Shown: positions 268 to 62,070, counted from the stretch's first letter. The stretch: 64,000 bases of DNA from Chthoniobacter flavus (GCA_945878135.1 CAMDUL010000002.1:79349-143348); one strand, 5' to 3'. Notes: generated by a model from the letters alone, not told the origin. A program made the numbers and translations.

Positions 268-1667
268 AACACCCGATCCAACCCCGGACCCGGCCCGGCA
301 GTTGCGGTTTTTTTCGCGGCAGACCATGGCGGCGGCGCGACCGGCTTGGCCTGGCGGACCGGCAGGGCCACGGTGAAAGTCGCGCCCGCGCCCGGGAGGC
401 TGCGCAGGGCCACGCTCCCGCCGTGGGCCTGCACGACATTTTTGACGATCGACAAGCCGAGGCCCGTGCCGCCCGTCTCGCGCGAGCGGTCTTTGTGCAC
501 GCGGTAAAATCGCTCGAAAATATGCTCCTGGTCCTCGTGCGGTATGCCGGGACCGTTGTCGGTGACCTGCACGTGGATGTTCGGTCCGGCCCGCTCGGCG
601 TAAAGGCCGACGACCAGGCCCGGACGGTTGCCGTATTTGAGCGCGTTCTCCAGCAGGTTCAAAAAAACCTGCTCGAGCCGGCCGGCATCGGCCTCGAGCG
701 AGAGGTCGCCTTCCGCGGTGGTGATGCGCACGACGGCGCCCTGGCGGCGGATCGGTTCGTCGAACTGCTCGACCACGCGGCGCAGGAGATCGCGCAGGTC
801 GAGCCGCTGTGTTTCCAGAGGCACATCACGTGACTCGGCGCGCGATATGGTGAGCAGGTCGTCGACCAGGCGGCCGAGGCGGTCGCCATGCTTGAACATC
901 ACGCGCAGCGCTTTCTCCGTCATGGCGCGGTCCTCGAGACCTCCGTCGACCAGCGTCTCGAGGTAGCCGTTGATGATGGTCAACGGCGTGCGCAGTTCGT
1001 GCGAGACATTGGCCACGAAATCGCGGCGCACCTGCTCGAGGCTCTTGATGCGCGTGATGTTGTGCACCACCACGACGGCACCGGGTCCGTCCGCGTCCAG
1101 CTCGAGGGGGGAAATGCTCAGCTCGAAAACCCGGCGCGTCCCGTCCTGCTCGAGAGTGATCTCCCCGCGGTGCGGCTGGCCGCCCTGCAGGCCTTCCTGG
1201 ACCAGACGGTGCATGGCGGCGTGCCCGAAGGCCTCGACCACGGTGCGGCCGGCCGGCGAGGCGGAAAGCCGGAACATGGCCTGCACCCCGCGGTTGGCCT
1301 GCCGCAGGCAGAGGCGGCGGTCGACGGTGAAAATCCCCTCGGGAATGCTGGCCAGGATGGCGTCGAGTCCGGCGCGCTCGCGGTGGGCGGCCAAGTCGAG
1401 GTCGCGGGCCTGGCGGGCAATGACTTCAAGATCGCGCTGCGCGGCGCGCAGACCGCGCGGCAAATCGAGGGCCAGCGGCCGGGCGACATCGCCGTGGGCG
1501 ATGCGGCGCAGCGCCGCGTGCAGGCGGCGGAGTCCGCCGAGGTAACGCGCCGCGAGGAGAAGCGCCGCCGTGGCGCCGAGCAAAGCAGCCGCCCACCACC
1601 ACCCGCTCAATCTTCCGTCCCTCCCGCGTCGAACCGGTAACCCGCGCCGCGCACCGTGGCAAAACAA
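264..1667 (-). CDS. sensor histidine kinase (PhoR-like: TM/HAMP, PAS, HisKA, HATPase)
   Basis: The H-box '[18 protein letters not shown]' and the ATPase motifs 'NLLENALKY', 'DNGPGIP' and '[10 protein letters not shown]' are present. The gene overlaps the end of the upstream response regulator. The exact start is uncertain. Confidence 0.9.
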
Positions 1668-2317
1668 CCGGCATGGGGGCCGAGCTTGGCACGCAGGCGC
1701 CGCATGTGCGTGTCGACCGTGCGGCTGTCGATCGGATTACGGTAGCCCCAGACATCGCGCAGCAAGGTCTCCCGCGAAATCGGCGCGCCGCGTTTTTCCA
1801 TCAGCGCGGCGGCCAGCTTGAATTCGATCGCGGTCAGATCGAGCTTCGCGCCCTCGAGGCGCACTTCGAACGTGCCGCGGTCGAGTTCGAACGGCCCGAG
1901 CACGAGCGAACCGCCCGGGCCCGGGGCGCGCATGCGGCGGAGGACGGCTTGGACGCGCAAGACCAGCTCGCGCGGACTGAAAGGCTTGGCCACGTAGTCG
2001 TCGGCCCCGAGTTCGAGTCCGGCCACGCGCTCGTCGACCTGGGCCTTGGCGGTCAGCATGATGACGGGGATCGACGCGGTATCCCCGGACGATTTGAGTT
2101 TGCGGCAGACCTCCTCGCCGCGCATCTCCGGGAGCATGAGGTCGAGGACGATGACATCGGGCCGTGCCGCGCGGGCTTCATCGAGGCCGGAGCGGCCGTC
2201 ACCGGCCAAAAGCACGCGAAAACCGGCCCGGTCGAGGTTGTAACGGAGCAACTCCAGCACATCGGCCTCGTCCTCGATGACAAGAACCGTATCCGATGCG
2301 GCTTCTTCAGGTTTCAC
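1607..2317 (-). CDS. OmpR/PhoB-family response regulator
   Basis: The receiver domain reads 'VLVIEDEADVLELLRYNLDRAGF...DVIVLDLMLPEMRG', and the winged-helix C-terminus reads 'RTVDTHMRRLRAKL...VRGAGYRF'. The track ORF extends to 2428, but that N-terminal extension does not look like protein. I therefore chose the GTG at 2317, which gives 236 aa. Confidence 0.85.
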   Translation of the reverse strand: MKPEEAASDTVLVIEDEADVLELLRYNLDRAGFRVLLAGDGRSGLDEARAARPDVIVLDLMLPEMRGEEVCRKLKSSGDTASIPVIMLTAKAQVDERVAGLELGADDYVAKPFSPRELVLRVQAVLRRMRAPGPGGSLVLGPFELDRGTFEVRLEGAKLDLTAIEFKLAAALMEKRGAPISRETLLRDVWGYRNPIDSRTVDTHMRRLRAKLGPHAGCFATVRGAGYRFDAGGTED

Positions 2318-2573
2318 GCCTCGGACGCTAGGAAGACATGACCCTGCCTCAAAGGTAAAAAAAGTGAGCCGCCGGTGATTCCAGTCAGAAAACAAGAAAA
2401 CTGACCGGCCCGGCGGCTCTTGGCGCAAACCAAACCGGTTATTTCGACCACGCCGGGCGGCCGATGTTCAAAAAATTTCCCGGAGGCGCCAAAGACCGTG
2501 ATTTGAGATTTTATTCCCGATACATCCAGGCCATCGCTCGACCTTGGGGCCAGCTGTGCTACTCTGGAAAAAG

Positions 2574-3218
2574 ATGCGACTCCGTGCGCTTTTTCTCCTT
2601 TCGCCCATCGTGCTGGCCGGTTGCGCGCAGATGGACAACCGCCATGTCATGCACATCAGCGTGGCGGACCAGAAAATGCTCGTGACCGAAGCGGGGCAAC
2701 CCGTGGCGTCCTACCCGGTTTCGACCTCGAAGTTCGGCCTGAGTTCCGCGCCCGGCAGTTACGGAACTCCCTTGGGCAAGCACCGCGTGGTGAAAAAAAT
2801 CGGCCACGGACTCCCCCCGGGCGCCGTTTTCAAGTCCCGCCGTCCCACCGGCGAGGTGCTTCCGGTCGATGCGCCCGGACGCGACCCGATCGTCACGCGC
2901 ATTCTCTGGCTGGACGGCAAAGAAAGTCATAACCGCAACAGCTTCGGCCGCTTCATCTACATCCATGGCACGCCCGAGGAACGCAACATCGGCCTGCCGG
3001 TCAGCTACGGTTGCGTCCGCATGCGCTCGCGCGACGTCATCGCCCTCTTCGACCGCGTCGGCACCGGGGCGCGGGTCGACATCTTCCGCGAACCGCTCGC
3101 CCAGCGCCTGCCCAAGCTCGTGCCGTCCGAACCGCCCGCCGTCGCCGCGGCCGCCCCGGATGCGCCGCCGCACACCGTGCTGGCCGGCGATCCGCCGGAC
3201 GCGCCGCGGGAGCTCTGA
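2574..3218 (+). CDS. L,D-transpeptidase (YkuD domain) lipoprotein
   Basis: The catalytic motif 'IYIHGTPEERNIGLPVSYGCVRMRSRDV' is present. The lipobox signal 'MRLRALFLLSPIVLAGC' supports a start at the second Met of the 2544 ORF. Confidence 0.85.
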   Translation: MRLRALFLLSPIVLAGCAQMDNRHVMHISVADQKMLVTEAGQPVASYPVSTSKFGLSSAPGSYGTPLGKHRVVKKIGHGLPPGAVFKSRRPTGEVLPVDAPGRDPIVTRILWLDGKESHNRNSFGRFIYIHGTPEERNIGLPVSYGCVRMRSRDVIALFDRVGTGARVDIFREPLAQRLPKLVPSEPPAVAAAAPDAPPHTVLAGDPPDAPREL

Positions 3219-9745: not shown

Positions 9746-10365
9746 GCCGAGATGCCCTGCGCGCGCACGTCGCGGAATTGCACGCCTGCCGCAGGTGCCC
9801 GGGCATGGCTTCGGTCCCGGTCTCGGGTCCGCCCGTGCGCAGCGAAGTGATGCTGGTCGGACAAGCCCCCGGCGTGCGCGAACCGCAGCTGGGAAGGCCT
9901 TTTGCCTGGACCGCGGGAAGAACGCTTTTCCGCTGGTTCGAGGAGGCCTGCGGGTTCGGCGAGGAGGTTTTCCGTTCGAGCATCTACATGGCGGCGGTCT
10001 GCCGCTGTTTTCCCGGCAAGCATCCCAAGGGAAGCGGCGACCGCGTGCCCGACGAGCGGGAGATCGCCAATTGCGCGCCTTGGATGGAGCGGGAGATCGC
10101 CCTGCTGCGCCCCAAGCTGGTCATTCCCGTGGGCAAGCTGGCCATCTCGCAATTTGTCACCGCGGAAAAACTGAGCGAAGTGATCGGACGCCGCATCCCA
10201 TTGGAACGCGGCGGGGTGAAATTCGGCCTCATCGCCCTCCCCCATCCTTCCGGCGCGTCGACCTGGCACCGCACCGAGCCGGGCAAGACGCTCCTGGGCC
10301 GTGCGCTCGGGATGCTGGCCAAGGATCCGGCGTTGCGCGCGATCGCCGGGACCCGGTCGCCGTAA
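9742..10365 (+). CDS. uracil-DNA glycosylase superfamily protein (family 4/5-like)
   Basis: The motifs 'CRRCPG', 'VMLVGQAPGVRE' and the C-terminal 'LPHPSGAS' are present. Its start overlaps the previous gene's stop (ATGA). Confidence 0.8.
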   Translation: MSRDALRAHVAELHACRRCPGMASVPVSGPPVRSEVMLVGQAPGVREPQLGRPFAWTAGRTLFRWFEEACGFGEEVFRSSIYMAAVCRCFPGKHPKGSGDRVPDEREIANCAPWMEREIALLRPKLVIPVGKLAISQFVTAEKLSEVIGRRIPLERGGVKFGLIALPHPSGASTWHRTEPGKTLLGRALGMLAKDPALRAIAGTRSP

Positions 10366-10428
10366 CCGCGGCTGCTTGCCGGCAAGAAAGCGGTGTCACA
10401 CCGTCGGCCGAACCGCTAAAAGGAACCC

Positions 10429-11172
10429 GTGGGAGCCGAAAAAATTTACCCGATGCTGGTCATCGACGCAGGCAACACATCCGTGAAATTCGCCCGCGTG
10501 GCGAAGCGTCACGCGGTGCCGCGCATGGCGGGCACTGTGGCCACGGCGGCCCTCACGCCGGCGCGGGTCCAAGCGATGGTGCGCCGCAGCGGTTGTCGCG
10601 TGGCCATGGCCTCGTGCGTGGTTCCTTCGGTCCGACGCATTCTGCGCGCAGGATGCCCGTTTGTTTCCTTCATCGGTCCGGCGACGCGGCTCGGTTTTTC
10701 CACATCGGTGGAGCGTCGCACGGTCGGGGCCGACCGCCTGGCCAACATGGCGCAAGCGGCGCGGAGGTTCGGCCGAAGCGCGCTGGTCGCCGACTTCGGC
10801 ACGGCGGCCACCTTCGATCTGCTCGACGGGCGCGGAGGCTTTGCCGGCGGCGCCATCGCGCCGGGATGGCGCGTTCTGGCCGGAGCTTTGTCCGCTGCAA
10901 CCGCGCAGCTGCCCGTGCCCGATCTTGTTCCTCCGCGGCGCGCGGCCGGACGCAACACGCGCGAGGCGTTGCGTGCCGGGGTCGGCGGCGGATACGCCGG
11001 ACTGGTGCGGCATTTGTTGCGCGGACTGCCGGCCGAACATGTTGTTTTCACCGGTGGCGATGCCCGATTGGTCGCGAAATTGACCGGCCTGAAGGTCACG
11101 GTCGATCCGCTGTGGACCCTGAAGGGCATCAGTGTTCTCGGCGACCTTGCCGCCCGCGAAGCCAGCAAATAA
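10429..11172 (+). CDS. coaX: type III pantothenate kinase
   Basis: The motifs 'MLVIDAGNTSVKFA', 'GADRLAN', 'ALVADFGTAATFD' and 'GGAIAPG' are present. The start could instead be the Met at 10453. Confidence 0.9.
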   Translation: MGAEKIYPMLVIDAGNTSVKFARVAKRHAVPRMAGTVATAALTPARVQAMVRRSGCRVAMASCVVPSVRRILRAGCPFVSFIGPATRLGFSTSVERRTVGADRLANMAQAARRFGRSALVADFGTAATFDLLDGRGGFAGGAIAPGWRVLAGALSAATAQLPVPDLVPPRRAAGRNTREALRAGVGGGYAGLVRHLLRGLPAEHVVFTGGDARLVAKLTGLKVTVDPLWTLKGISVLGDLAAREASK

Positions 11173-38285: not shown

Positions 38286-38699
38286 GTGGCACGGGAAAAA
38301 AAACAGCGCATCGCCACGGACGCCGCACCGGAGCTGCGGACGAATCCCTTTGCCGCCCTCGAAATCCAAGGCCGCGAATCCCAAAAAGGTAGGGACACGC
38401 GGCCCGCGTGTCCGGCTCGACACCAACGGCCGAGCGAGCCGCTCGGCCCTACCTCCACCGTACGCCTCCTCCTGCGCCGCTCGACCGCCCACCGCGGCGG
38501 CAAAACCGTCCTCGTCCTCGAAGGATTTTCCCCCGCCTGGAACGAAGCCAAGTTGGGCGACCTCCTGCGCGAATTGAAAGCCTGCCTCGGCTGCGGCGGT
38601 CAAATCAACGCCCGCACGATCGAAATCCAAGGCGACCAACCCGACCGTCTGCAACCCCTGCTCGAATCCCGCGGCTTCGCCATCAAACGCGGTTGGTGA
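38286..38699 (+). CDS. yciH: translation initiation factor SUI1/eIF1 family (YciH-like), carrying a 22-aa repeat-encoded insertion
   Basis: The SUI1 core 'VRLLLRRSTAHRGGKTVLVLEGF...LRELKACLGCGGQINARTIEIQGDQPDRLQPLLESRGF' is present. The gene has a GTG start. Residues 35-56 are encoded by the 66-nt element at 38388-38453. Confidence 0.8.
   Translation: MAREKKQRIATDAAPELRTNPFAALEIQGRESQKGRDTRPACPARHQRPSEPLGPTSTVRLLLRRSTAHRGGKTVLVLEGFSPAWNEAKLGDLLRELKACLGCGGQINARTIEIQGDQPDRLQPLLESRGFAIKRGW
38388..38453. repeat. 66-nt double-hairpin palindromic element, copy 1 (inside yciH, in frame)
   Basis: The element reads GGTAG-GGACACGCGGCCCGCGTGTCC-GGCTCGACACCAAC-GGCCGAGCGAGCCGCTCGGCC-CTACC. Both 21-nt modules are perfect 9-bp stems with 3-nt loops. 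Confidence 0.9.
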
Positions 38700-47231: not shown

Positions 47232-47240
47232 GCTCCCCAA

Positions 47241-47306
47241 GGTAGGGACGAGCGGCCCGCTCGTCTGCTCTTTTCCCAACGGACACGCGGGTTGCGTGTC
47301 CCTACC
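47241..47306. repeat. 66-nt double-hairpin palindromic element, copy 2 (9 nt upstream of esterase start)
   Basis: The element reads GGTAG-GGACGAGCGGCCCGCTCGTCT-GCTCTTTTCCCAAC-GGACACGCGGGTTGCGTGTCC-CTACC. Confidence 0.9.
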
Positions 47307-47695
47307 CTCCCGAGTAACTCGAAGTGTTTTGAGGCACCGACGCTCATAGACCGCCGCTACAATTTTTTGTCGAGGTGTAGCGGCGCTCTATGAGCGTCGG
47401 TGCCTTTCCCTCTTTGCAACGAGAGTAGCCCCAGTTACTCCCAAACCACACCCGCCCACGTGCGGGTTCGGGGACTCCCGAGTAACTTGAAGTGTTTTCG
47501 CGCAGCGACGGTCATATCAGTTGGCTTCGCTTTGCTTCAGCCTGTCTCGCCAAGCCTCGGCTGACGCGCCGCGACAAGCTTTCGTCGAGGTGTAGCGGCG
47601 CTCTATGAGCGTCGGTGCCTTTCCCTCTGGCAGGGACTGGTGACCCCAGTTACTCCCAAACCACACCCGCCGCGCGCGGGTTCAGGGACTCCCTA
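47307..47695. repeat. non-coding block of two tandem repeat units (about 168 and 218 bp) containing a 30-bp inverted repeat
   Basis: Three segments recur with only a few substitutions. Segment 47307-47330 recurs at 47475-47498. Segment 47369-47413 recurs at 47584-47627. Segment 47431-47479 recurs at 47645-47693. In unit 1 the arms 47332-47361 and 47376-47405 form an inverted repeat matching at 29 of 30 positions. Confidence 0.85.
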
Positions 47696-47718
47696 ACGCA
47701 AGCAACTTGCCACGGCAG

Positions 47719-47771
47719 GGATCGCTGGCCTCTGAGCCCGTAGGGCTCCACGAGCCGGAGGCCAGCGATCC
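47719..47771. other. nested perfect hairpin
   Basis: The outer stem GGATCGCTGGCCTC (47719-32) / GAGGCCAGCGATCC (47758-71) is a perfect 14 bp. It encloses an inner hairpin GAGCCC-GTA-GGGCTC (47734-48). Confidence 0.7.
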
Positions 47772-47835: not shown

Positions 47836-48063
47836 ATGAGCGCCGCCGGAGTCATGAATCTCGCCAAGCAGCTCCCCGAAAAGGAGGTGCTCGACTTGGC
47901 GCGGCTGCTCGACGCATGGACTGCCGCTATGGTTGATCAAAAACTCGAAGCTGCCGTTCAATCCGGCGCTTTCGACCAAATGGCGGCCGATGCCCTGCAA
48001 GAGTTGGAGAACGGGAAGACCATTCCTCTCGATGAAGTCCTCCACGACCCGCGCCTTTCGTAA
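47836..48063 (+). CDS. hypothetical small protein (75 aa), weakly antitoxin/addiction-module-component-like
   Basis: This is the protein-like part of ORF 47707..48063. It reads 'MSAAGVMNLAKQLPEKEVLDLARLLDAW...ALQELENGKTIPLDEVL'. The resemblance is only by pattern, and there is no partner toxin gene adjacent. Confidence 0.35.
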   Translation: MSAAGVMNLAKQLPEKEVLDLARLLDAWTAAMVDQKLEAAVQSGAFDQMAADALQELENGKTIPLDEVLHDPRLS

Positions 48064-48127
48064 GCTACGAAAGGCAAGTGTGGCAAAAGATTGACCTCCG
48101 CGGCCCGTCCACGTGCCATCAACCCCG

Positions 48128-48997: not shown

Positions 48998-50016
48998 AAA
49001 TTTGGACGCACCACTACACGCTGGAGCCCGGATCCGATCCGGCCCGCGCCGCGCGTAGTCCGCGTCACGGTGCACTTCTCCGCGTGGAGTTCGACGATGA
49101 AACCATCGGCCATGCCGACCTGCATCCGTGGGAGGAATTCGGCCACGCTCCCTTGGCCGAGAATCTTGGCTCGCTGCGCACGGACCAACCGACACCCTTG
49201 GCCGACCTTGCCGTGCGTCACGCGCGCATCGATGCCGCCGCACGCCGAGCCGGCCTTTCGCTTTTCGACGGAATCCCCGAAGTGCGCAGCCATGCGCTCT
49301 TCACCAATTGGGCCGCTGCGCCGCGCAGCGCATTCGAAGAGTGCGTCGTCGATGGCTACACCGCGGCCAAACTCAAGATCGGACATGATCCCGAACGCGA
49401 ATCCGCCGCACTCAACGCCCTCGCCGGTTTGCCGCTACGCTGGCGTTTGGATGCCAATGCCCAAGGTAGGGACGAGCGGCCCGCTCGTCCGCTTGATCCG
49501 ATCCGGACGAGCGGGCCGCTCGTCCCTGCCCATTTCCTCGCGCAATTGTCCGCCGGCATCCTCCGAAATATCGAATTCCTCGAAGACCCCACACCCTACA
49601 ATAGCGCCGCATGGTCCGCCCTGAGCGAACGCGAAAAAATTCCCCTCGCCCTCGACTGGGAACTTCCCTCCTCCCCGCCGCCATGGCCCGGCGCGCGAAT
49701 CCTCGTGATCAAACCCGCCTCGCAAGACGCCTTCCCCCTCGCCCTCGCCGCCGCGCACGCCGGGATGGAAATTGTCGTTACCCACAGCATGGACCATCCC
49801 CTCGGCCAAGCCGTCGCGCTCTGGACCGCCATGCGTTTACGCCAGCGGCATGGCGATCTCGTCCGCGACGGCGGCCTCCAAACCAAGGGACTTTACCAAG
49901 CGGACGAATTCAGCGCCCAAATCCGGACCCTCGGACCGCACACCGCGCCGCCCCCGGGCACGGGCTTCGGTTTCGACGGGTTGCTCGGACGACTCCCATG
50001 GAAAACCCTCCCATGA
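48994..50016 (+). CDS. menC: o-succinylbenzoate synthase (enolase superfamily), carrying a 22-aa repeat-encoded insertion
   Basis: The motifs 'KLKIG', 'RLDAN' and 'IEFLEDP' are present, with later acidic/lysine motifs. The gene lies directly after menA, with its GTG start overlapping the menA stop (GTGA). Assignment of the subfamily relies partly on this context. Confidence 0.75.
   Translation: MKIWTHHYTLEPGSDPARAARSPRHGALLRVEFDDETIGHADLHPWEEFGHAPLAENLGSLRTDQPTPLADLAVRHARIDAAARRAGLSLFDGIPEVRSHALFTNWAAAPRSAFEECVVDGYTAAKLKIGHDPERESAALNALAGLPLRWRLDANAQGRDERPARPLDPIRTSGPLVPAHFLAQLSAGILRNIEFLEDPTPYNSAAWSALSEREKIPLALDWELPSSPPPWPGARILVIKPASQDAFPLALAAAHAGMEIVVTHSMDHPLGQAVALWTAMRLRQRHGDLVRDGGLQTKGLYQADEFSAQIRTLGPHTAPPPGTGFGFDGLLGRLPWKTLP
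49465..49530. repeat. 66-nt double-hairpin palindromic element, copy 3 (inside menC, in frame)
   Basis: The element reads GGTAG-GGACGAGCGGCCCGCTCGTCC-GCTTGATCCGATCC-GGACGAGCGGGCCGCTCGTCC-CTGCC. Confidence 0.9.
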
Positions 50017-62003: not shown

Positions 62004-62070
62004 GGTAGGGACACGCGGCTCGCGTGTCCGTTTGGAACGGATGCGGACGAGCGGGCCGCCCGTCCCTAAC
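62004..62070. repeat. 67-nt double-hairpin palindromic element, copy 4 (intergenic, upstream of dgkA)
   Basis: The element reads GGTAG-GGACACGCGGCTCGCGTGTCC-GTTTGGAACGGATGC-GGACGAGCGGGCCGCCCGTCC-CTAAC. It has one stem mismatch and one mismatch in the terminal repeat. Confidence 0.85.

Follow-up and report, generated by a model that had tools for sequence, protein, structure and literature searches.

A BIME-like cluster of REP-type composite elements, probably mobilized by a RAYT, upstream of the men genes in Chthoniobacter

The question raised by this locus is what a conspicuous, structured and apparently non-coding block, built of two similar units, represents in the intergenic region between an esterase gene and the MenA–MenC genes. 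The block lies at 47307–47693 of the 64-kb window, that is, the whole stretch of DNA analysed here. It is flanked on one side by the esterase gene on the minus strand (PF00756; ATG at 47232) and on the other by a 75-aa ORF on the plus strand (47836–48063), with MenA (UbiA family) and MenC next on that strand. The absence of a credible ORF over the block, as originally predicted, was confirmed, as were the positions of its repeats. Repeat finding in the window recovered a head, a core and a tail common to both units (47307–47479 and 47475–47693), each repeated directly at a distance of 168 or 214–215 nt, together with a 30-nt inverted repeat (47332–47361 and 47376–47405) whose arms are 97% complementary (29/30) and separated by 14 nt. 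The head, core and tail motifs each occur exactly twice in the window, where none are expected from dinucleotide shuffles. The block also folds more stably than shuffled sequences (z = -7.4 and -8.0 on the two strands), although strong folding on both strands is expected of any palindromic DNA.

The block is best explained as a BIME-like cluster of non-autonomous REP-type elements, in which two head-to-tail composites of ~168 nt share CTCCC at their junction and are moved by a RAYT. We regard this reading as quite probable.

REP-type modules of the intergenic region

The core of the original prediction is the 28-mer GTAGCGGCGNTCTATGAGCGTCGGTGCC, named REP2 here, which is laid out as GTAG, an 8-bp stem (CGGCGCTC/GAGCGTCG, with one G-T pair) closed by a 3-nt TAT loop, and GTGCC. 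In a scan of 185,579 species genomes, one per bacterial and archaeal species, 69 exact matches were found in 58 stretches, all in nine Chthoniobacterales/Verrucomicrobia MAGs, including 43 in one (CAVZLI01) and 13 in another. The metagenome scan returned at least 120 loci. When mismatches were allowed, the species-genome loci contained 143 copies, in which the initial GTAG was nearly invariant (G1 in 142/143, T2 in 141/143, A3 in 140/143 and G4 in 143/143). With the metagenome matches listed included, positions 10 and 18 were complementary in 349 of 354 copies, as C-G (163), G-C (183) or T-A (3). The near-invariance of GTAG and the complementarity of the stem at positions 10 and 18 identify REP2 as a GTAG-tagged REP. 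In keeping with the GTAG superfamily, the 5' GTAG is itself unpaired at the foot of the hairpin, and REP2 is a short imperfect palindrome maintained by complementary changes. The many extragenic copies per genome that characterize REPs were seen in the two MAGs with 43 and 13 exact cores, neither of which is the window's own genome.

REP2 is frequently paired. Among the matches listed there were 63 head-to-head doublets, all with 16-nt spacers of related sequence, and 42 tail-to-tail doublets with variable spacers; the GTAG end was assumed to be the 'head' of a REP when these were matched to the spacer rule of PMC3733652. Among the first 120 metagenome loci listed, 13 had the composite and 29 had tail-to-tail doublets of variable spacing, the rest being mostly single copies. 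No Rfam family was assigned to the block at gathering or permissive thresholds; the gathering score was reached only by a tRNA elsewhere in the window, and at permissive settings the long hairpin gave only far-sub-threshold matches to miRNA-precursor models. The viral contigs, plasmids and phages searched had no match to the block, and a literature search for Chthoniobacter REPs found no report.

The whole stretch 47241–47771 is composed of REP-type modules, in the order REP1 doublet, composite 1, composite 2 (an X variant, described below) and a long-loop REP1-like palindrome. The REP1 doublet (47241–47306), referred to as a 66-nt element in the original prediction, contains two inverted REPs of GGTAGGGAC plus a GC hairpin (47241–47265, plus strand, and 47282–47306, minus strand) and directly abuts unit 1. 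It is also found at the orthologous site in three other loci (L066, L070 and L071). A promoter and terminator scan detected no promoter-like site and no terminator within the units, its sole terminator-like match lying inside the REP1 doublet and outside the units. The final module of the cluster is the palindrome at 47714–47771 (GGCAGGGATCGCTGGCCTC...GAGGCCAGCGATCC), which has a perfect 14-bp stem and the foot GGCAGGG in place of GGTAGGG; long-loop REP1 copies akin to it were seen in L053, L059 and L061. In the window as a whole, REP1 (GGTAGGGAC plus GC hairpin) was observed at 38388–38453, 47241–47306 and 49465–49530 and in one copy starting at 62004, mostly as 66-nt inverted doublets.

The immediate surroundings of the cluster were also compared with those in relatives. 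The 75-aa ORF had no significant Pfam or NCBIfam match and one sub-threshold Pfam match, MgtE_N, and it is missing from the orthologous esterase–MenA intergenic region of relatives (L064–L069). Copies with 79% nucleotide identity adjoin the transposase gene RAYT-1 (see below) in L059 and L060, overlapping an 83-aa ORF in L059. The 75-aa ORF looks like a small mobile gene, possibly the orphan half of a two-gene module. Directly upstream of MenA, the sequence at 48064–48112 (GCAAAAGATTGACC...) is conserved in L063, L064, L066, L067 and L069. In relatives this sequence forms a hairpin with GGTCAATC...GATTGACC; in the window, the small ORF and the cluster of repeats take the place of the distal arm. 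An exact-sequence look-up of the esterase returned nothing on record.

Composite architecture and the conserved shell

Unit 1 (47307–47479) is the canonical composite and consists, on the plus strand, of a head, a head-to-head REP2 doublet and a tail. The head (47307–47330, CTCCCGAGTAACTCGAAGTGTTTT), in which family conservation begins at CT, is followed by a left REP2 on the minus strand (47333–47360, GTAGCGGCGGTCTATGAGCGTCGGTGCC on that strand), a 16-nt doublet spacer that forms the loop of the long hairpin (47361–47376, AATTTTTTGTCGAGGT), and the right REP2 (47377–47404, GTAGCGGCGCTCTATGAGCGTCGGTGCC), which is the predicted core. Beyond these lie a small variable hairpin (47410–47425, CTCT-TTGCAACG-AGAG), which is CCCT...AGGG in most copies and has one pair changed on both sides across aligned copies, and the tail (47429–47479, CCCCAGTTACTCCC...), with a GC hairpin at 47450–47467 and the end GGGGACTCCC; family conservation ends after GGGACT. 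The full composite order of head, inverted REP2, 16 nt, REP2, 24 nt and tail with the end GGGACTCCC was found in ~40 copies of ~168 nt. The 31 composites that were aligned, from several species-level MAGs, had a mean identity of 93%.

Unit 2 (47475–47693, plus strand) has the junction pentamer CTCCC (47475–47479) in common with unit 1 and represents an X-variant composite. Its left arm had been described as degenerate but is an intact minus-strand REP2 (47502–47577) that is split at its own hairpin apex, into halves at 47502–47516 and 47563–47577, by a 46-nt X insert (47517–47562, TCAGTTGGC...CGGCT) with its own hairpin TTGGC/GCCAA. The right REP2 (47592–47619, plus strand) is identical to that of unit 1, and the tail (47644–47693, plus strand) has its GC hairpin at 47665–47681 and the end GGGACTCCC. 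Among the matches listed, the X variant was present in eight other loci (L070 and L071 among them, and twice in L044). Part of the X insert resembles a module, GGGCC.TCTCGCCAAGCCTC.GCTG, that is frequent after GGGACT at element ends. The module ..GGGCC.TCT...CGGTT..., partly like the X insert, was often observed after GGGACT ends (nine loci) and also fills the esterase–MenA intergenic region of L066 (around 2860–2960).

The pairing pattern across the family indicates which of the possible hairpins is maintained. In most composites the left REP is of the G10/C18 subtype and the right REP of the C10/G18 subtype, and because the doublet joins different subtypes the arms of the long hairpin are mismatched at two positions in 27–28 of the 31 copies; a third position is mismatched in 18. 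Within the left REP, by contrast, the stem pair is retained in 28 of the 31 copies, and none of the eight stem pairs of the right REP varies. The retention of pairs within each REP, set against the mismatches between arms, shows constraint on the individual REP hairpins rather than on a long RNA-like hairpin. The inverted repeat of unit 1 was correctly predicted as a 29/30 match around a 14-nt loop; when set beside the aligned copies, this near-perfect pairing is atypical for the family and marks a hybrid copy, its left REP2 having G at both positions 10 and 18, so that its own stem is broken.

Pairing elsewhere in the composite is less informative. The 8-bp subterminal inverted repeat shared by head and tail (P1, GAGTAACT/AGTTACTC) is 92% paired across copies, but both P1 and the tail hairpin, while well paired, are nearly invariant and so provide no covariation evidence. 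Covariation for the long hairpin, P1 and the tail was no better than in shuffles, with almost none outside the REP stem. The compensating changes that had been proposed for the tail hairpin were not recovered, as the two units share the same stem (ACCCGC/GCGGGT), which hardly varies among the 31 copies, and only the loop differs.

Head and tail together form a conserved shell of ~98 nt (head CTCCCGAGTAACTCG...; tail CCCCAGTTACTCCC..., GC hairpin and GGGACTCCC) that was also found around other cargos, namely a REP1 doublet (L004, L053, L028, L042 and L044), a single REP1-type hairpin (L039 and L057) and other palindromes (L041 and L019). The left edge of conservation falls at CT in 54 of 56 copies and the right edge after GGGAC-T in 63 of 68. 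The three bases following a GGGACT-type end are CCC in ~60% of cases, and ~40 of the 68 ends run straight into another head. Tandem arrays of composites are present in the window and in L001, L047, L049 and L053. In the last of these (1600–2700, minus strand) the array has a 381-nt period, with REP2-cargo alternating with REP1-cargo composites at the same head/tail junctions. Fixed end modules around a variable middle, in strongly structured, intergenic and non-coding elements, are likewise a feature of the BOX elements of Streptococcus pneumoniae and of the PATEs of IS200/IS605. To our knowledge these have no sequence similarity to the composites and are without GTAG REPs and without a RAYT.

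A typical REPIN is far smaller than the shell, which moreover accommodates other cargos, so the shell, and not the REPs, could be the mobilized entity. This may take the form of a dedicated carrier, with the CT-bounded shell of ~98 nt being moved by RAYTs as a unit that holds REP doublets of different families; the 3' end of the shell would then recreate its own 5' target, CTCCC, leading to in-register insertion and hence to arrays. We consider this carrier role possible but doubtful. It is rather unlikely that the shell is instead a mobile unit with REP doublets as passengers, such as a PATE- or MITE-like derivative of an IS200/IS605-type or other element, inserting 3' of CTCCC, regenerating CTCCC at its own end and using a transposase other than the REP2 RAYT. 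Such an element would account for the same head and tail frame around at least four different cargos, for CTCCC at both ends and shared at junctions, for the position of unit 1 exactly after CTCCC, and for the subterminal GC hairpin 12 nt from the end of the tail, which we take to be comparable to the right end of IS608 (IS200/IS605). However, in ~1.1 Mb of loci no ORF was found enclosed by a head...tail pair, clustering of the proteins near elements gave no recurrent transposase or recombinase family, and the only Y1 genes found in the loci searched were RAYTs. Moreover, a GTAG-type REP, or a hairpin like it, was present in every cargo seen, in keeping with dependence on a RAYT.

The constant junctions are also relevant to the suggestion that the block is a recombination site. 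The ~62-nt tail-head junction (AGTTACTC...GC hairpin...GAGTAACT) might be read as the site of a site-specific recombinase within an integron- or dif-module-like cassette array, given that it is an imperfect palindrome around a variable 5–6-nt loop, that it stays constant around variable inserts of 100–280 nt in L053, L044, L028 and L019, and that so many ends (~40/68) are followed by another head. Solitary copies nevertheless have half a junction at either end, like a transposon, rather than a full site on one side. Furthermore, no integrase or recombinase gene was found in the window near the block or recurrently near the loci, and the variation of the central loop between copies is unfavourable for crossover by a tyrosine recombinase. 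A recombination site is not supported, and we rate it as very improbable. On inspection, neither GAGTAAC nor GTTACTC agrees with the RYYYAAC/GTTRRRY motifs of integron attC, the cargos are non-coding and there is no integrase near the block. Retron msr/msd, attC, a CRISPR-like array, type III toxin-antitoxin repeats and IS110 bridge RNA were rejected because the neighbouring gene that each needs (RT, integrase, cas, toxin or IS110 transposase) is missing; the family is also dispersed and orientation-neutral.

Genomic placement and presence or absence among relatives

Elements of the family are located almost exclusively between genes, with 59 of 60 tails being intergenic according to a crude GC3-based gene caller. 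Relative to the flanking genes, 12 were in convergent, 10 in divergent, 8 in co-directional and 10 in anti-directional arrangements, indicating no orientation bias.

The orthologous esterase–MenA region was compared between the window and its relatives. In L064, L066, L067 and L069, the esterases of which are 85–87% identical to that of the window, the region is 92–256 nt long and is without the composite and the small ORF. The repeat cluster is also absent from L063 (esterase 92% identical), in which the contig covers the esterase side. In the closest relatives, L070 (esterase 96%) and L071 (91%), unit 2 comes immediately after the REP1 doublet, and unit 1 is missing. In these alignments unit 1 corresponds to a single clean gap of 168 nt; the 127 columns to its left are identical, and the sequence to its right is nearly so. 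The segment missing in the relatives corresponds to 47312–47479, its placement being ambiguous within the 13-nt repeat CTCCCGAGTAACT. Presence or absence at orthologous sites, one kind of evidence for REPIN movement, was seen both for unit 1 and for the two units together.

The two units differ in their interior, variable hairpin and tail loop, which indicates that unit 1 was not copied from unit 2. It must then either have arrived from elsewhere in the genome or have been precisely lost between 13-nt direct repeats. Judged by parsimony, the identity levels speak for acquisition of unit 1 in the lineage of the window; the 168-nt difference could instead reflect a deletion between the 13-nt direct repeats. 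A second presence/absence difference was observed between more distant relatives (~75% nucleotide identity), with a composite lying downstream of the orthologous gene in L008 (5036–5164) and missing in the window (10365–10430). It was also observed that ten short-read contigs, including L070, L071 and L008, end inside repeats. This suggests that MAG copy numbers are probably underestimates and that the family appears to break assemblies.

These results bear on two further proposals for the block. The interpretation as nested or decayed MITEs holds in so far as the elements form a dispersed, non-autonomous intergenic family with presence/absence polymorphism. They are neither decayed nor classical MITEs with terminal inverted repeats and target-site duplications, as they have only the 8-bp subterminal inverted repeat, and the flanking pentamer is always CTCCC, with no variable target-site duplication. 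It is also highly unlikely that each unit is a structured small RNA gene or a cis-regulatory or terminator RNA element. The very low folding energies on both strands are compatible with an RNA, as is the G-T pair of the REP stem, which would be a G-U wobble in RNA, and REPs elsewhere can stabilize or terminate transcripts, according to PMC3733652. The two REPs of the doublet carry this wobble on opposite strands, however, and close relatives differ in whether a copy is present. A structured RNA is further disfavoured by the random orientation to neighbouring genes, 10 of 40 elements lying in divergent regions, by the covariation and Rfam results, and by the promoter and terminator scan of the units. 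The possibility of a purely local tandem duplication that belongs to no wider family, suggested by the presence of only two units and no further copy in 64 kb, is negligible in view of the 69 exact cores in nine other genomes, the at least 120 metagenome loci, the different family variants represented by the two units and the relatives that carry unit 2 without unit 1.

RAYT lineages, related systems and probable mode of movement

For the preferred reading, a BIME-like cluster moved by a RAYT, the expected partner is a Y1/HUH transposase linked to the same REPs. No RAYT was found in the 64-kb window, and a cognate gene in the window's genome is assumed. Regular-expression and tblastn searches for Y1/HUH transposases in the window and the first loci identified only that in L032; weak transposase matches in L004, L023 and L041 proved to be ordinary genes. 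L032 belongs to the MAG with 43 cores (CAVZLI01), and its RAYT (NF047646, 84.8 bits against a cut-off of 80) defines the RAYT-1 lineage. RAYT-1 is bracketed by REP1 (GGTAGGGNC plus GC hairpin) in five contigs (L032 and L059–L062), and only REP1 flanks, with no REP2 flanks, were found among homologues of this type. Thus the only RAYT seen in a composite-carrying MAG is bracketed by REP1 and not by REP2. Two-component genes were observed on one side of RAYT-1, comprising a PAS histidine kinase in L059–L061, accompanied by a response regulator in L059 and L060; in L032 there is a response regulator, and L062 has neither gene.

A second lineage, RAYT-2, was found at 969–1460 of L158, scoring 100.2 bits against NF047646 (cut-off 80) and 38.8 bits against Pfam Y1_Tnp. 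Among the metagenome matches listed, RAYT-2 has inverted copies of GTAGCGGCGGTCTATGACCGTCGC (REP2) on either side in L158, L152, L192 and L193/L194, and in L115 a REP2 doublet lies directly upstream of a RAYT-2 homologue; these five places are independent of one another. The first 24 bases of the flanking REP2 copies are those of the left-arm REP2 of the composites, and all 28 bases match in the 3' copies of L158 and L152 and in the upstream copy of L115. Together with the bracketing, this identity shows that REP2 has a dedicated RAYT lineage in these contigs. The RAYT-2 contigs are 57–63% GC and contain no composite within the stretches read. Mobilization of the composites by a RAYT is probable on these comparisons of sequence.

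A match to a known IS or MITE family, which the original prediction took as counting against it, applies only in part: the composites belong to the well-known class of REPs and REPINs, but the family itself is not catalogued in the databases searched. GTAG REPs in head-to-head and tail-to-tail dimers, and tandem clusters with flanking DNA, are described by Di Nocera et al. (2013, PMC3733652), including in the Verrucomicrobia (Opitutus terrae). As presented there, the superfamily resembles REP2 in several respects: its 5' GTAG is unpaired and precedes a stem of 5–13 bp with a short loop, its sub-families differ in the complementary residues used within the stem, a G-T pair occurs there, and its dimers have conserved spacers when head-to-head and variable ones when tail-to-tail. 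Dimer clusters tandemly reiterated with flanking DNA and several REP families per genome are likewise described in that text. The comparison of REP2 with the 24 GTAG families listed in it is by description and not by consensus sequence. Unlike the superfamily as described in that source, the 'flanking DNA' of REP2 takes the form of a constant ~98-nt shell, in which other REP families are carried as well.

The composites share with the REPINs of Pseudomonas fluorescens (Bertels & Rainey 2011, PMC3116915) inverted REP doublets that form a hairpin, with the window copy pairing at 29 of 30 positions, as well as an extragenic location, high conservation and a non-autonomous nature; there, too, the RAYT gene is flanked by the same REPs, a linkage seen here in related contigs only. 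They differ in length, at ~168 nt against roughly 70–110 nt, and in being heterodimers of subtypes in which the long hairpin is systematically mismatched at 2–3 positions. With the BIMEs of Escherichia coli (Messing et al. 2012, PMC3479197), the cluster has in common a mosaic in which REPs of two subtypes alternate in orientation, linker motifs that are conserved and recur head-to-tail in tandem, and conserved blocks bounded by CT. The linkers of the composites are much longer and have their own hairpins. A further mark of BIMEs is that IHF, DNA gyrase or Pol I bind to their motifs. The E. coli TnpA-REP needs GTAG and the hairpin, and cuts between the C and T of a CT that may be distant and on either side (PMC3479197). 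The edges of the conserved block of the composites would, by analogy, fit this rule of CT cleavage.

A mode of movement can be proposed on this basis. A RAYT would bind GTAG and the hairpin on single-stranded DNA, cut at the CT bounding the conserved block (C^TCCCGAG... and ...GGGAC^T), that is, between C and T within CTCCCGAG and within GGGACT, and rejoin the element at another CT. As the element ends in its own starting sequence, a new copy could land in register beside a resident one, which would produce tandem arrays. A host function would not be required, and any effect on the divergent promoters of the esterase and of the small ORF and MenA would be a by-product.

The REP2 family, the large shell and the in-register insertion are uncatalogued within this well-known class. 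For annotation, a conspicuous structured non-coding block is probably explained as selfish REP-type DNA, and an sRNA, riboswitch or recombination-site label would not be needed. Should the tentative role of the shell as a carrier be true, the shell would provide a natural, sequence-defined substrate for establishing where a RAYT cuts and joins, which is unsettled for REPINs and BIMEs. The findings point to two coexisting REP-RAYT systems, REP1/RAYT-1 and REP2/RAYT-2, in the Chthoniobacterales, a little-studied lineage of soil and freshwater. The one-unit polymorphism, the CT-bounded block and the interchangeable cargos may serve as concrete substrates for the study of RAYT-mediated excision and reinsertion of REPINs.
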